DNA of 64,000 bases from Eledone cirrhosa (Eukaryota): assembly GCA_964016885.1 (NCBI GenBank), contig OZ024748.1:31186001-31250000 (forward strand), read 5' to 3'. Positions within the stretch are counted from its first letter, which is position 1, and each line of letters starts with the position of its first letter. Positions 4,130 through 41,271 of this stretch are shown here, one piece after another. The position numbers and the translations under genes are program-made. Below the pieces are notes generated by a model. That model was not told the origin of the DNA. It did not search any database and worked only from the letters and a program-made list of their open reading frames with translations.

Positions 4130-4842
4130 TATATTAAACTCTTGATTTGGCCAGAGATGAATATTTCCAGATACCTTTTAAGTGTAGCTTTCCGTATTTA
4201 TTATTACTATGAAATATTGATTGTTATTCTGGTATCATATCTCTGTTTTTAAATACCTATATGCGTGTATAAATAATACATGCATATATTTATTTTTTAA
4301 AAATCTAATTGAGCTCTTCACACGCAAGGTTTAAATTATTGAAAAAATTAATTGACCCGCGTGCATATTATTTTACTTTCTTATGTTTCGCGATGACCTC
4401 CCCTTTCCGCTTGATGACAGTGTGAAATTTCTCATTCTGAGACTGCTGGAATTTCAAATTTGGCGGTCATTCTGATACGGAGAGGGACCATCGCTAACAT
4501 TGGATTGGATATCGGTAAGAAAGTTTTTTATATCGATGTTTGACGGGCATCCACTGATGATTTATTAGTGCCCACCTGCATATATTCCTATGTGTAGGCT
4601 TTTACATAACCTGGACACATTTTTCCCCAACTTGTAGAAAACTTATAATGAAACAATTGTTTGGAAAGGGAGATGTATTTTAATTATGTCTCATATAAAA
4701 TGATACAACTGGCTATCCGCAAAATACATATAGTTAGCACCCCAAACGTAAAATTGGGATTATACTAAGGTATATCCTAATGTTTTTTGAGTGAGATGGA
4801 AGCCAGTCAGAGTATAGCTTAAAGCTTTCTCTGTTAATGTAT

Positions 4843-4847
<5 letters not shown>
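4130..4847 (+). mobile_element. ORF-less HHR-bearing repeat (family B), flanked by (TA)n
   Basis: Similar to the reverse complement of 49207-50040, 38680-39000 and 21941-22755. Confidence 0.7.
4545..4666 (+). ncRNA. Type I hammerhead with large branched stem II insertion (family B)
   Basis: UCCA CUGAUGA UUUAUUAG [~75 nt] CUUAUAAU GAAA CAAUUG UU UGGA. Confidence 0.75.
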
Positions 4848-4885
<38 letters not shown>

Positions 4886-10649: not shown

Positions 10650-10710
10650 TTTCATTTACCAGTGGTTTCTTGAAAACAAAGAAATTTTATTTTCAATCGT
10701 CAGAATGAAA
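10650..10710 (-). ncRNA. Type I hammerhead (family D)
   Basis: UUUCAUU CUGACGA UUGAAAAUAAA..UUUGUUUUCAA GAAA CCACUGG UA AAUGAAA. Confidence 0.8.
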
Positions 10711-10745
10711 AAATCCTGGTGTATAAAATAAATACACCAGGATTT

Positions 10746-10806
10746 TTTCATTCTGATGATTGAAAGCAAAATTTGTTTGTTTTCAAGAAACCACTGGTAA
10801 ATGAAA
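10746..10806 (+). ncRNA. Type I hammerhead (family D)
   Basis: UUUCAUU CUGAUGA UUGAAAGCAAA auuug UUUGUUUUCAA GAAA CCACUGG UA AAUGAAA. Confidence 0.85.
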
Positions 10807-13653: not shown

Positions 13654-13870
13654 GTTACGTAATAAACAACATAAGGCAATCATTTCATTTACCAGTGGTT
13701 TCTTGAAAACAAACAAATTTTGTTTTCAATCATCAGAATGATAAAATCCTGGTGTATAAAATAAATACACCAGGGTTTTTTCATTCTGATGATTGAAAGC
13801 AAAATTTGTTTGTTTTCAAGAAACCACTGGTAAATGAAATAATTGCCTTATCTTGTTTATTACATAACTA
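13652..13870. ncRNA. Second palindrome with two family D hammerheads (13683-13742 minus, 13779-13839 plus)
   Basis: Direct duplicate of 10620-10838. Both cores are CUGAUGA...GAAA. Confidence 0.8.
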
Positions 13871-21940: not shown

Positions 21941-22755
21941 ATAAATACATTATCGGAGAAAGCTTTTAGCGATACTCCGGCCAAATTCCAACTCACTCAA
22001 CAAACATTAGGAAATAAGTGAGTATATTCCTAATTAAACGTTCGTGGTGCTAACTAAATGTATTGTGTAGAAAATTGGCTGTATTATTTCATATGAGACA
22101 TATCGAATATATCTCTTCCCAGACGGACGTTTCGTTTCATTATAAGATTCCTACAATGTAGGTGAAATTATACCAATTTATGTAGGAGCTTGTATAGGAT
22201 CAACAGATAATATTCAAGTGGGCCCTTATAATTCATCAGTGGGTGCCCAATAATACTAATATTGATAATCTAACCAATATCAGTATTTAGCGATAATCAC
22301 CATCAGTGCCTGAGGTATCTGTTAGGTTTCTACTCCAACAGTTCTAAAGAAATACTCAAACTGATTCAAAAATTAGGAAGTATATTACCTCCAAAAAAAC
22401 AATACGTGCGCAGGACAATGAATTCTAAGAGTAATTCAGGCCACGTGCTAGAACTCAATTGGAATTTGAAAAAATATCCATGTGTGTACAACGTCTGATG
22501 ACACACATAGATATTTTCTCGGGCAGAATGAGATACAGAATGAGATACAAGAAACAATCAATATTCATATATAATAAAAATAAACAAAGAGAGTTCAAAC
22601 CTTATATCGGGAATTTCATATCTGTTGCACCAAGAGTAAATAAATAAATACATTATCGGAGAAAGCTTTTAGCGATACTCCGGCCAAATTCCAAATCACT
22701 TAAACATTAGGAAATAAGTGAGTATATTCCTAATTAAACGTTCTGGGTGCTAACT
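21941..22755 (-). mobile_element. Family B unit with ~110 bp terminal direct repeat (period about 705 bp)
   Basis: AAATACATTATCGGAGAAAGCTTTTAGCGATACTCCGG occurs at about 21943 and about 22646. Confidence 0.75.
22118..22249 (-). ncRNA. Hammerhead family B
   Basis: CCCA CUGAUGA AUUAUAAG [insert] CUUAUAAU GAAA CG aaacguc CG UC UGGG. Confidence 0.75.
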
Positions 22756-22774
22756 CATATTTCATATGAGACAT

Positions 22775-25151: not shown

Positions 25152-25920
<769 letters not shown>

Positions 25921-31133: not shown

Positions 31134-34100
31134 ATGAACCATAGCTATAACAAATGTTAAAGACCAAACACACAGAGACGATGGTTAAACAATCATTCGA
31201 ATAGCCAAAAAAACGGTCAAGTAATTCGGGTCAAACAAATAAAAAATATCTGTGATTGAAAATTTACCCGGACCCCTGGAAGGTTGGTAAAATCCAGTAT
31301 TTGGGTTTCTGCGTCTCCTAAATCAAGTACTGTCCGCTTACATAAATAATGTTAGGCTTCTGGTAAGATGATTGAACAAGGAAGCCACTTTCTCAACAGG
31401 TTTTAGTTCAATGTTAATACAAGGACTGACTATTGCTGACCCCACGTGGGGATCGGCAAGGCAGGCAACCCTTATATCAGGCGAATGAATTCAGTTGTGT
31501 ATATTTTTGCAAGAATGCAAAAACATCACAAATCGAATAGAGTTCTCAACGGAAGGGTTAAAATTAACATAAGCTATTCATCAGTCAATAGAATCAAGTA
31601 AAAAATCAAGAAAATTAACTGGTCAATAGCTAGAGTCTGGAGATTAATACAAACATAAATTATCGAGAATCGCATTTCGGCCCACCAAATAACGAAAAAC
31701 AACCTCCGAGATGTGTGGAAAGTGCTCAATGATTCAGATGAACCAGAGCTATAACAAACGTTAAAGGCCAGACACACTGAGACTATGGTTAAACAATCAA
31801 TCGCATAGCCAAAAAAACGATCAAGTAATTCGGGTCAAACAAATAAAAAAATATCTGTGATTGAAAATTTACCCGGACGCCTGGAAGGTTGGTAAAATCC
31901 AGTATTTGGGTTTCTGCGGCTCCTAAATCAAGTACTGTCCGCTTACATAAATAATGTTAGGCTTCTGGTAAGATGATTGAACAAGGAAGCCACTTTCTCA
32001 ACAGATTTTAGTTCAATGTTAATACAAGGACTGACTATTGCTGACCCCACGTGGGGATCGGCAAGGGAGGCGACCCCTGTATCAGGCGAAGGAATTCAGG
32101 TGTGTATATTTTTGCAAGAATGCAAAAACATCACAAATCGAATAGAGTTCTCAACAGAAGGGTTAAAATTAACATAAGCTCAGTCAATAGAATCAAGTAA
32201 AAAATCAAGAAAATTAACTGGTAAATAGCTAGAGTCTGGAGATTAATACAAACATAAATTATCAAGAATCGCATTTGGGCCCACGAAATAACGAAAAACA
32301 ACCTCCGAGATGTGTGGAAAGTGCTCAATGATTCAGATGAACCAGAGCTATAGCAAACGTTAAAGGCCAAACACACTGAGACGATGGTTAGACAATCATT
32401 CGCATAGCCCAAAAAACGATCAATTCGGGTCAAACAAATAAAAAATATCTGCGATTGAAAATTAACCCGGACCCCTGGAAGGTTGGTAAAATCCAGTATT
32501 TGGGTTTCTGCCGCTCCTAAATCAAGTACTGTCCGCTTACATAAATAATGTTAGGCTTCTGGTAAGATGATTGAACAAGGAAGCTACTTTCTCTACAGAT
32601 TTTAGTTCAATGTTAATACAAGGACTGACTATTGCTGACCCCACGTGGGGATCGGCAAGGGAGGCGACCCCTGTATCAGGCGAAGGAATTCAGTTGTGTA
32701 TATTTTTGCAAGAATGCAAAAACATCACAAATCGAATAGAGTTCTCAACAGAAGGGTTAAAATTAACATAAGCTATTTATAAGTCAATAGAATCAAGTAA
32801 AAAATCAAGAAAATTAACTGGTCAATAGCTAAGAGTCTGGAGTACAAACATAAATTATCAAGAATCGCATTTGAGCCCACGAAATAACGAAAAACAACCT
32901 CCGAGATGTGTGGAAAGTGCTCTAATGATTCAGATGAACCAGAGCTATAGCAAACGTTAAAGGCCAAACACACTGAGACGATGGTTAAACAATCATTCGC
33001 ATAGCCCAAAAAACGATCAATTCGGGTCAAACAATAAAAAATATCTGTGATTGAAAATTTACCCGGTCCCCTGGAAGGTCCGCAAAATCCAGTATTTGGG
33101 TTTCTGCGGCTCCTAAATCAAGTACTGTCCGCTTACATAAATAATGTTAGGCTTCTGGTAAGAGGATTGAACAAGGAAGCCACTTTCTCTACAGATTTTA
33201 GTTCAATATTAATACAAGGACTGACTATCGCTAACCCCACGTGGGGATCGGCAAGGGAGGCGACCCCTATATCAGGCGAAGGAATTCAGGTGTGTATATT
33301 TTTGCAAGAATGCAAAAACATCACAATTCGAATAGAGTTCTCAACAGAAGGGTTAAAATTAACATAAGCTATTTATCAGTCAATAGAATCAAGTAAAAAA
33401 TCAAGAAAATTAACTGGTCAATAGCTAGAGTCGGGAGATTAATACAAACATAAATTATCGAGAATCGTATTTCGGCCCACGAAATAAAGAAAAACAACCT
33501 CCGAGATGTGTGGAAAGTGCTCAATGATTCGGATGAACCAGAGCTATAGCAAACGTTAAAGGCCAAACACACTGAGACAATGCTTAAACAATCATTCAAA
33601 TAGCCCCAAAAACGATCAAGTAAATCGGGTCAAACAAATAAAAAATATCTGTGATTGAAAATTTACCCGGACCCCTGGAAGGTTGGTAAAATCCAGTATT
33701 TGGGTTTCTGCGGCTCCTAAATCAAGTACTGTCCGCTTACATAAATAATGTTAGGCTTCTGGTAAGATGATTGAACAGGGAAGCCACTTTCTCAACAGAT
33801 TTTAGTTCAATGTTAATACAAGGACTGACTATTGCTGACCCCACGTGGGGATCGGCAAGGGAGGCAACCCCTATATCAGGCGAATGAATTCAGTTGTGTA
33901 TATTTTTGCAAGAATGCAAAAACATCACAAATCGAATAGAGTTCTCAACAGAAGGGTTAAAATTAACATAAGCTATTCATCAGTCAATAGAATCAAGTAA
34001 AAAATCAAGAAAATTAACTGGTAAATAGCTAGAGTCGGGAGATTAATACAAACATAAATTATCGAGAATCGCATTTCGGCCCAGGAAATAACGAAAAACA

Positions 34101-34873
34101 ACCTCCGAGATGTGTGACAAGTGCTCAATGATTCAGATGAACCATAGCTATAACAAATGTTAAAGACCAAACACACTGATACGATGGTTAAACAATCATT
34201 CGCGTAGCCAAAAAAACGGTCAAGTAATTCGGGTCAAACAAATAAAAAATATCTGTGATTGAAAATTTACCCGGACCCCTGGAAGGTTGGTAAAATCCAG
34301 TATTTGGGTTTCTGCGCCTCCTAAATCAAGTACTGTCCGCTTACATAAATAATGTTAGGCTTCTGGTAAGATGATTGAACAAGGAAGCCACTTTGTCAAC
34401 AGGTTTTAGTTCAATGTTAATACAAGGACTGACTATTGCTGACCCCACGTGGGGATCGGCAAGGGAAGCAACCCCTATATCAGGCGAATGAATTCAATTG
34501 TGTATATTTTTGTAAGAATGCAAAAATATCACAAATCGAATAGAGTTCTCAACAGAAGGGTTAAAATTAACATAAGCTATTCATCAGTCAAGAGAATCAA
34601 GTAAAAAATAAAGAAAATTAACTGGTCAATAACTAGTGTCTAGAGATTAATACAAACATAAATTATCGAGAATCGCATTTCGGTCCACGAAATAACGAAA
34701 AACAACCTCCGAGATGTGTGGCAAGTGCTCAATGATTCAGATGAACCATAGCTATAACAAACGTTAAAGGCCAAACACACTGAGACGATGGTTAAACAAT
34801 CATTCGCATAGCCAAAAAAAACGATAAAGTAATTAGGGTCAAACAAATAAAAAATATCTGTGATTGAAAATTT
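31134..34873. repeat. Tandem satellite, about 6.2 units of 593-605 bp
   Basis: Marker ATCTG(T/C)GATTGAAAATT at 31248, 31853, 32447, 33043, 33647, 34251 and 34856. Confidence 0.95.
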
Positions 34874-34913
34874 ATATACATATATATAAATATATATATA
34901 TATATGCATATAA

Positions 34914-38670: not shown

Positions 38671-38869
38671 CTCTCTATATATATTTAATACAATTACAGA
38701 GATAGTTTAAAGCTAAACTCTGACTGGTAACCATCTCACTCAACAAACATTAGGTTATATTTTAATATAAACCCAATTTAAGTGTTTGGGGTGCTAACAA
38801 TATGTATTATGTGGAAAAGCCAGTTGTATTATTTTATGAGATATAATTAAAGTTAAAATACATCTCTCT

Positions 38870-38999
38870 TTCCAAACAATTGTTTCATTATGAGTTTTCT
38901 ACAAATTGAGAGAATATTTCCAGTTTATGTAGAAGCCTAACATATATTCATGTAAGAATATATTTAGGTGGGCGCTTATAAATCATCAGTGGAAGCCCA
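38870..38999 (-). ncRNA. Hammerhead family B, in a unit fragment at 38680-39000
   Basis: UUCCA CUGAUGA UUUAUAAG..CUCAUAAU GAAA CAAUUG UU UGGAA. Confidence 0.7.
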
Positions 39000-41271
39000 T
39001 AAGACTTAATAAAAACCTTCGCTAATTTTAATCTTAAAATTACTATTGACACTAACCTTTCAAATGTTAATTTTCTAGATATAAACCTAGATCTACCTAC
39101 TGCTTCTTATAAACCATACCATAAACATAATGAAAATTTAAAATATATAAATAAAGGCTCTTGCCATCCTCCTATAGTTTTTAAAACCCTTATCCCTAAT
39201 ATTAGCCGTAGGATCTTCACCCTCTCTTCCTCAGAAGCTATTTTCAACAAGGCATCCCCCTACTATAATAAAGCCCTTCAAAATAGCGGATTTAGCGAAC
39301 CGATTAAGTACATACCCAACAATACTAACTCTTTTAAACATAATAATAGGAAAAGAAAAATAATCTGGTTCACACACCCCTACTCTCTAGCAGTTAAAAC
39401 TAATGTAGGCAAACAATTGCTAGAGCTCTTAGATAAACATTTCCCTAGAACACATAGATACTATAAGATCTTCTATAGAAACTGTGTCAAAATTAGCTAC
39501 TCCTGCGGACCCCTATTAAATCTTATATCATCAATAAGAAATCACCCAGAGAACATCAAAATTGCTCCTGTAGAGTCAAAAGTGAATGCCCATTACAAGG
39601 TAAATGCAACACCAAAGCCATTGTATATGCGGCTAAAGTGACAACCATCAGCAACAACGAACCAGCCACCAGCGAACGATATATGGGTATGACACAAGAC
39701 AAATTCAAAACGCGTTATTACTCACATGTCGCATCTTTCCGACATCCAGAAAAAAGATTCACAACAGCTCTGGCTAGCAGAATATGGGATTTGAAAGACC
39801 AAGGTATCCAATATAAATTGGATTGGTCAATTTTGAACCAATCTAAAGAATATGCAAGAGGAACAAGAAGATGCGCACTCTGCATAAGTGAAAAATATTG
39901 GATTTTACAGAACCTTAAATCACCAAAAACCTGCCTAAATACAAAAACAGAAATGTTCACCAGTTGCCCACACATTAAATCACACTTGCTTTCCGACTCA
40001 TATAACTTAACTCACTTTCAGATACTTATCCTCCATAAACTCTTATTCTTCACTTTCCTTAAATTATCCTCTTTACAGACTTCTCTTTCTGATTTACTTT
40101 CATTTTTAACTTTATTTTTAATTTTATTTTTATTTTTACTTCACATCCACCAGTAACCCCCCCCCCCCCTACTTTTCGATTCACTTACCTAATATCTTCA
40201 CATTCCACATTTTACTTCCCCATTTTCTTTCACTACCTGATATCACTTGTCACTTGCGTTTTCCACTCCAGATATATTCTGTTGTTTCGCAGCCGATTTT
40301 ATATTTGTACTCATTTATTCATATAGCTGGTTTATAATCTGTATCTCTTTGTGTGAGTGTGCTTATGTGTGTATATGTTCTGTATATGTATACGAACGCC
40401 TCCCTATGTGTGTGTGCGGACATATATATATGTGTGTGTATGTGTGTTTTTATATCTATGTTTTTTATATCTATGTTTTTACATACTTATTTATACGTGT
40501 GTGTGTATGCGAGTGAATGTATGTGTATGTATATGTGTGTATATGTATATGTATGTATGGGTGTGTATGTATATATGTATATATATATATAGTCGCGTAC
40601 GTACGTGTGATTAGATATACATGTGGAGATATAGATATATATATACGTGCCTCGTGTGTATGTATGTACGCATGCATGCGCTTTTGACTGTACGTATTTG
40701 TGTGTATAAATATTTATATATATATATATATGTGTATGTACGTGCGTACCTATGTTTGTTTTCTTTTCTCTAGTGTTAATTGATTACTTTCTCTTTGATT
40801 TAAAAAATATTTTTTCATTCTCATATATTGTTTCATTTTTATACATATATCGAGAATGACACTTCTTTTTACTAACACACTCCCTTCCCTCTTTATCATC
40901 CGCATATAAGTGACCGCGCGTGTGTGTGTGTTTATACGCGTGCTTTCATACTCATATGTGTATTTAATACCTGTATCTGGATGCGTGTCAACTATATTAT
41001 CATACAATTTCTTTTTCAACTCATATTAATACGTATTTGTGGTCACATATACACAAATATACTTGCCCTCATATATGTAATTACGCACACATTTTCACCA
41101 TACACATTCATTTGTACATACACACATATGTACATTTGTGAGGGTATATACACACATATACACATACCCTAACTATATGTCTTATTTTTTTATATATCTC
41201 TTGCATTACTTTTATTTATATATTTTTTGCATTTCTTGAGGAGACTTTTCAAATATTTCACTATGTTTTAA

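Follow-up and report, generated by a model that had tools for sequence, protein, structure and literature searches.

A helix of at least 4 bp joining the stem I and stem II sides was predicted for about 40% of the hammerhead ribozymes examined by Perreault et al. (2011; PMC3088659), of all three types, and in the available portion of that paper compensatory mutations made in a type II ribozyme demonstrate such a pseudoknot. The hammerheads of Penelope-like elements, as presented in the available text of Cervera and De la Pena (2014; PMC4209133), are minimal type I motifs with a helix I of 4–5 bp, a helix II of 7–8 bp started by an extra base, a conserved G10.1-C11.1 pair and a palindromic stem III that implies dimers, and they occur in thousands of dispersed copies. 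The (TA)n-targeting Hydra clade of these elements carries a 3′ hammerhead and is defined, in section 11 of the partly available Craig et al. (2021; PMC8557442), by the motifs RW, DKT and CxCX5C. All Hydra hammerheads in File S2 of that source have a loop 2 of 3–10 nt, and the longest loops in its table (29–35 nt) belong to two plant elements flagged as deviating. Animal non-LTR retrozymes, according to the available parts of two reports (PMC7229834; bioRxiv 10.64898/2026.07.22.740005), are repeats that lack coding capacity and carry a single type I hammerhead in each unit of 220–390 bp; they are proposed there to be non-autonomous Penelope derivatives.

The hammerheads considered here lie in a 64,000-nucleotide stretch of Eledone cirrhosa DNA (the window) and elsewhere in the 3.0-Gb genome; we call the group of main concern family B. 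It resembles the pseudoknotted hammerheads of PMC3088659 in its likely helix between the stem I and stem II sides. The example tested in the available part of that work is, however, a small type II ribozyme from a microbe, its stem II just 1 bp long, whereas here we deal with an animal type I motif whose stem II has 8 bp and in which the partner strand sits within a multibranch junction with one or two further hairpins (a comparison that covers the text of that paper). With the Penelope hammerheads of PMC4209133, family B has in common the type, the helix lengths, the extra base, the palindromic stem III and the dispersed abundance, but the G10.1-C11.1 pair conserved there is mostly U-U here, and the available text of that paper describes neither a tertiary contact nor a large loop II, both of which family B has (the contact likely so). 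It shares (TA)n targeting and a 3′ hammerhead with the Hydra-clade elements of PMC8557442, and the clade's motifs are found here in autonomous carriers of hammerheads with a long stem II; the stem II arm measures 45–103 nt in the hammerheads considered here, as against the short loops of File S2. Unlike the Hydra clade, family B is non-coding, and its own autonomous partner was not found in the contexts searched. Compared with the retrozymes, it likewise has one type I hammerhead per non-coding unit, but the units are longer (669–1,030 bp in 45 units measured), mostly solitary or in partial tandem, and fixed at the 3′ end. The open-access literature, judged by titles, abstracts and passages of text, yielded no account of a multibranch stem II combined with a 5′-flank pseudoknot in animal elements. 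Lunse et al. reportedly described dimeric Penelope hammerheads in 2017, and similar variants are possible there. Pseudoknotted hammerheads on the one hand, and Penelope hammerheads with a 7–8 bp helix II and a palindromic stem III on the other, are known separately; their branched combination was not found in that literature.

The branched-stem-II hammerhead of the window is a real feature, and its presence is confirmed. A covariance model trained on 16 genomic representatives, which are close kin of the window copies, found exactly four full copies in the whole window (129–142 bits; runner-up match 27 bits). The copies, and the parts of copy 1, are as follows.

4131–4850 (+): full family-B unit, flanked by (AT)n tracts and non-coding; many genomic copies align over all 720 of the 720 query bases
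4537–4670 (+): copy 1 hammerhead (covariance model)
22113–22256 (−): copy 2 hammerhead, second subfamily, ~697-bp unit (covariance model)
22637–22760 (−): tail-only partial copy upstream of copy 2, forming a partial tandem with it
38866–39006 (−): copy 3 hammerhead, 5′-truncated element (covariance model)
49387–49527 (−): copy 4 hammerhead, subfamily with ~990-bp unit (covariance model)
4545–4548 (+): copy 1, 5′ flank GGGC, likely pseudoknot strand
4550–4553 (+): copy 1, stem I 5′ strand UCCA, partner 4662–4665
4554–4560 (+): copy 1, catalytic core CUGAUGA
4562–4569 (+): copy 1, stem II 5′ strand, 8 bp, following the U-U opposition
4570–4574 (+): copy 1, junction strand GCCC(A) (GCCC at 4570–4573), complementary to the flank and likely pseudoknot partner
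4575–4598 (+): copy 1, hairpin 1 of the branched stem II
4600–4639 (+): copy 1, hairpin 2, with a 7-bp stem, an internal loop and a 3-bp inner stem
4641–4648 (+): copy 1, stem II 3′ strand, partner of 4562–4569
4650–4661 (+): copy 1, GAAA core (4650–4653), palindromic stem/loop III CAAUUG (4654–4659) and GUU triplet; predicted cut after 4661
4662–4845 (+): copy 1, stem I 3′ strand and ~180-nt tail to the insertion end

All four copies keep the core CUGAUGA, GAAA and GUU or GUC, together with both hairpins. An earlier note on this DNA had described a branched stem II insertion of ~75 nt, a stem I that covaries between UCCA/UGGA and CCCA/UGGG, and, upstream of stem I, a GGGC complementary to a GCCC just inside stem II; each of these is borne out, with the insert measuring 71–78 nt, its two hairpins showing compensatory changes in the 16 representatives, both forms of stem I occurring among the window copies, and the GGGC...GCCC complementarity intact in all four. 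The note's count of four diverged copies stands as a count, but copies 3 and 4 are 95% identical, so that the window represents three subfamilies and not four independent ones. The stem II base was read there as (A/U)UUAUAAG. Copy 1 is slightly decayed: it has UUAUUAG, which gives stem II a U-U mismatch, and its hairpin 1 is shortened by a small deletion; in copy 3, stem II contains one A-C mismatch. As for the expectation that standard descriptors would miss this architecture, Rfam indeed gave no matches in 4450–4800 at E ≤ 10 or in the whole window at gathering thresholds, its other output in the window being AT-repeat microRNA noise; but the short-stem hammerheads of the window are missed as well, so the miss is not specific to the stem II insert.

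Judged from its sequence, the family-B motif is a type I hammerhead with an open-ended stem I, cleavage itself being predicted. The pattern of core plus stem II has 2,684 exact matches in the 3.0-Gb genome and none in the reversed control; no match was found in metagenome contigs. From 118 distinct copies, grouped into 16 clusters, 16 representatives were aligned. The CUGANGA, GAAA and UH core is invariant in 16/16 of them (H being U, C or A). Under the proposed structure 92% of cells are paired (33–47% in slid controls) and 12 of 41 pairs are changed on both sides. None of 500 shuffles matched the paired fraction or the covariation score and 35 matched the number of covarying pairs, statistics that are inflated by the relatedness of the sequences, as the tool itself warns.

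Stems I–III show 90–100% pairing, each with at least one pair changed on both sides. The outer pair of stem I is U-A in 10 representatives and C-G in 5, and that of stem II is A-U in 7, U-A in 7 and G-U in 2. Hairpin 1, said to change its letters while keeping its pairing, does so in 5 of its 10 pairs, and hairpin 2 is conserved as a helix (97–100% of cells paired; both-sided change in 2/7 pairs, and in 1/3 in the inner stem). The two extra hairpins are probably not catalytic, because families with one hairpin exist. At the first stem II pair, the G10.1-C11.1 position, most representatives have U-U, the position being unpaired in 9/16 and paired in 7/16. A G10.1-C11.1 closing pair is usual in hammerheads but not essential. 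U-U is the best-tolerated mismatch at this position according to the available part of PMC3088659. Stem III is a palindrome of 6–11 nt, kept with different letters (CAAUUG, CGAUCG); no monomer hairpin is predicted for it, and its self-duplex is worth −6 to −15 kcal/mol.

Covariation is thus seen in the three stems and the hairpins but not in the helix between flank and junction, where 0/5 pairs are changed on both sides in the family-B representatives. This helix, (U)GGGC/GCCC(A), would link the stem I and stem II sides by 4 bp or more, with a duplex energy of about −9 kcal/mol, and its junction strand is unpaired in the hammerhead-constrained fold. GGGC and GCCC are identical in all four window copies, so the window offers no covariation for this helix. 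Among the first 100 of 2,482 family-B copies listed, counted by eye, 87 have GGGC/GCCC, 3 GGGU/GCCC, 10 GGGC/ACCC (a broken end pair) and none GGGU/ACCC. The eight helix letters are near-fixed, while adjacent letters take 2–4 states.

A generic descriptor run over 1.65 Mb of DNA gave 33 clusters of long-stem-II hammerheads, which were merged by eye into 18 families. In 7 of the 18, the single strand past stem II is complementary to the family's own 5′ flank, as listed here (flank/junction).

Family B: UGGGC/GCCCA
Family C: GAGAAU/AUUCUC
Family D: (UG)AAAAGA/UCUUU(UCA)
Family E: GGAAAA/UUUUCC
Family F: UGGAAA/UUUCCR
Family G: GAGU/ACUC
Family H: GGCG/CGCC

Permuting own against swapped flanks over the 18 families gave p = 0.0017 (0.0004 with the majority letters of family H), with windows chosen after families B and C had been seen; leaving out these two discovery families, p was 0.043 (0.013 with the family H majority letters). 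Pairing of the junction with the 3′ flank was rejected by the same type of control (p = 0.74). In the 9 families that have the junction tied up in other pairs, no flank-complementarity signal was seen (p = 0.84). Families C–F are purine-rich at the flank and pyrimidine-rich at the junction, and common ancestry is possible. The geometry is constant across families: 5–7 nt separate the end of the flank helix from the core, and a further 7–9 nt lie between the core and the start of the junction helix (the spacing in family D was read by eye).

Two copies of family C lie in the window.

25601–25698 (+): family C hammerhead, alike in topology but with a single hairpin; flank GAGAAU, junction AUUCUC
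60417–60511 (+): second family C copy, flank GAGAA, junction UUCUC

In a branch of this family the third pair has gone from G-C to A-U: the first 100 of 724 rows listed (2 of them duplicates, counted by eye) comprise 69 GAGAA/UUCU, 27 GAAAA/UUUU, 3 with a G-U wobble and 1 mismatch. The compensatory swap may have happened just once in evolution. In the case of family H, the pairing was predicted in advance from one copy with a mismatch, and 21 of 29 further copies pair (14 GGCG/CGCC, 3 GGUG/CACC and 4 through G-U; 8 are broken); the variable pair is a CpG site, which decays anyway. Because other families keep the pairing with other letters, family C shows the swap and the family H prediction held, the strand immediately past stem II is the likely pairing partner of the 5′ flank, in a stem I–stem II pseudoknot. 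The pseudoknot proposed in the earlier note is therefore supported from across families, with no double change inside family B.

Long stem II arms are common in this genome, in at least 18 families. Genome-wide there are 13,020 matches for hammerheads with a 42–72 nt stem II arm (13 in the control) and 6,073 for a 73–102 nt arm, with a pattern that mostly excludes family B (15 in the control). In five families (C–G), a GUAAGU-, GUAAAG- or GUAAAU-like motif that resembles a 5′ splice donor stands 12–16 nt after the predicted cut (in the window, 25613–25710 and 60429–60520).

The 3′ end of the family-B unit is fixed, 171–187 nt past the predicted cut, and adjoins (AT)n. Its 5′ end varies from copy to copy, and partial tandems occur often. 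A coding role for the unit was dropped, since the longest stop-free frame is just 60 aa (a sister unit read as a dimer). This anatomy matches Penelope-like insertions and non-LTR retrozymes as portrayed in the available parts of PMC8557442, PMC7229834 and bioRxiv 10.64898/2026.07.22.740005, and by analogy with them we class the family-B element as a non-autonomous, Penelope-like element of the retrozyme type. The tail (4662–4845, +) is predicted to form a long-range consensus stem, the two arms of which vary jointly between subfamilies; it is a candidate RT recognition signal. In the ~990-bp subfamily the unit contains an internal duplication of ~250 bp of its own 5′ region (loci L063, L068, L331 and others).

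No same-strand Penelope ORF ends directly upstream of family B in 136 contexts, and no autonomous family-B partner was found among 108 endonuclease ends in 1.65 Mb of DNA. The RT genes downstream of window copy 3 and of locus L010 were rejected as partners, (AT)n separating them from the element end as expected of nested insertions. Other long-stem-II hammerheads, with an irregular stem II of 83–98 nt, stand 417–825 nt beyond the end of an ORF. Autonomous Penelope-like carriers of such hammerheads occur at L318:1744-4830, L279, L282, L298, L271, L269 and L277; the first, checked in full, has the RW, DKT and CxCX5C motifs and a pLTR-ORF-pLTR tandem. Because the autonomous carriers of a long stem II bear motifs of the (TA)n-targeting Hydra clade, a Hydra-type Penelope enzyme likely drives family B. 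The idea that long-stem-II hammerheads are the missing Naiad hammerheads was dropped, as the autonomous carriers have a C-terminal endonuclease and Hydra motifs. The autonomous long-stem families J, O and R are without the flank-junction helix. Some family J copies have a 5′ flank, UAAUACA, that could pair with UGUAUUA in a distal hairpin loop, a possible second kind of long-range contact.

We favor, with a probability of roughly 0.65, a mechanism that combines type I self-cleavage after GUH, the flank pseudoknot and a Penelope enzyme acting in trans. A tandem or read-through transcript would fold into the hammerhead, and the flank helix would brace stems I and II side by side, as in the pseudoknotted hammerheads tested in the available part of PMC3088659; it would take the place of the usual loop-loop contact and speed cleavage. 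Since stem III is a short palindrome that self-duplexes and does not fold alone, cleavage would probably need two copies within one tandem transcript (PMC4209133, in its available part; PMC6765202). A Penelope-like RT/endonuclease, probably of the Hydra clade, would then begin copying ~180 nt downstream of the cut and insert at (AT)n; reverse transcription that begins inside the RNA has been shown for an Anolis element (PMC11167929). About one third of insertions would have been copied from already-cut RNA, with copying stopping near the cut, and the remainder would have read through an uncut or circularised template, leaving partial tandems.

Folding predictions bear on a different role for the flank helix, that of an off-switch. 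It would form first in transcription, as a hairpin around the CUGAUGA strand, and block stems I and II, delaying cleavage until the RNA is refolded by a protein or a second copy. Both the free minimum-energy fold and the ensemble prefer, in each of the four window copies, the flank helix over stems I and II (probability 0.75–0.99 as against at most 0.13), and with the flank removed the two stems are recovered in copies 2 and 4. Two further observations agree with such a switch: 40 of the 59 insertions scored below pass through an intact hammerhead, and a tested Penelope hammerhead required protein help (PMC11167929). Nested folding, however, must pick one helix set because it cannot represent a pseudoknot, and the flank helix has no bases in common with stems I or II. 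Moreover, the fixed spacing across families is what a stem I–stem II brace predicts, and such pseudoknots raise the rate in the hammerheads tested in the available part of PMC3088659. We therefore consider an off-switch unlikely.

The 5′ ends of insertions provide a sign of cleavage. Copies were picked by their 3′ tail alone, which leaves the 5′ ends unbiased, and 59 of 60 could be scored. In 19 of the 59 the 5′ end falls 0–30 nt past the predicted cut, where 1.55 were expected, a density of 12.5 per kb compared with about 1 per kb in the remaining bins. The bin was set after upstream partial copies and the first subfamily (12/30) had been viewed; the second subfamily (7/29) serves as the replicate, with p = 0.0004. 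One copy begins exactly at the predicted cut and others at +4, +6, +7, +8 and +9; the remaining 40 of the 59 have their 5′ ends elsewhere. The pile-up coincides with an AT-like stretch (+11 to +17), which blurs the breakpoints, and upstream partial copies form a second cluster at −27 to −32; on account of these two features, structure stalls or microhomology would contribute. We regard the pile-up as a hint of cleavage in vivo.

The same data could be read to mean that the motif folds but cleaves little in vivo and acts chiefly as a handle on the RNA or a place for the RT to pause, the pile-up arising from stalling at stem I and microhomology with (AT)n. Besides the AT-like stretch and the −27 to −32 cluster, this reading can draw on an in vitro system in which hammerhead cleavage is dispensable for insertion and on Anolis reads, none of which end at the cut (PMC11167929), as well as on the slowness of Penelope hammerheads in vitro (PMC4209133, available part). 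Against it, stop rates are low at equally AT-like stretches inside the hammerhead, the ends at 0 to +9 listed above precede the AT-like stretch, and the letters of the catalytic core do not change although those beside them do; we find so small a role for cleavage rather improbable. The complementarity of GGGC and GCCC in family B might also be incidental, inherited without having a role, as the lack of double changes and the ~10% of copies with a broken end pair might suggest. This is very improbable given eight near-fixed letters beside variable ones and the same pairing with other letters in six further families.

The window as a whole holds about 28 hammerhead motifs and a dozen Penelope-like ORF fragments of at least two clades, nested in (AT)n tracts. 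At 43308–49031 and 31134–34874 there are tandem arrays with units of ~550–600 bp, the former containing ten short type I hammerheads on the minus strand in a typical retrozyme-like arrangement. At 10650–10806 and 13685–13839, members of a short-tailed hammerhead family lie as inverted pairs, and the long hairpins that result account for spurious MIR2600 matches in Rfam.

Taken broadly, we propose, tentatively and at slightly less than even odds, that large animal type I hammerheads with the 5′ flank pseudoknotted into a multibranch stem II form a class of their own, used by many families of Penelope origin (a single genome containing tens of thousands of the motifs), and that the 5′-end pile-up is a genomic record of in vivo cleavage of the reverse-transcribed RNA. 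Metazoan Penelope hammerheads have been described as minimal, slow and without tertiary contacts; here they include large branched forms with a likely brace. This suggests that animal hammerhead counts are underestimates, and large forms may explain some of the ‘half-core’ cases. Cleavage was dispensable in one in vitro system (PMC11167929). For any Penelope family, in vivo cleavage can be tested simply and from the genome alone by looking for such a pile-up of truncations.
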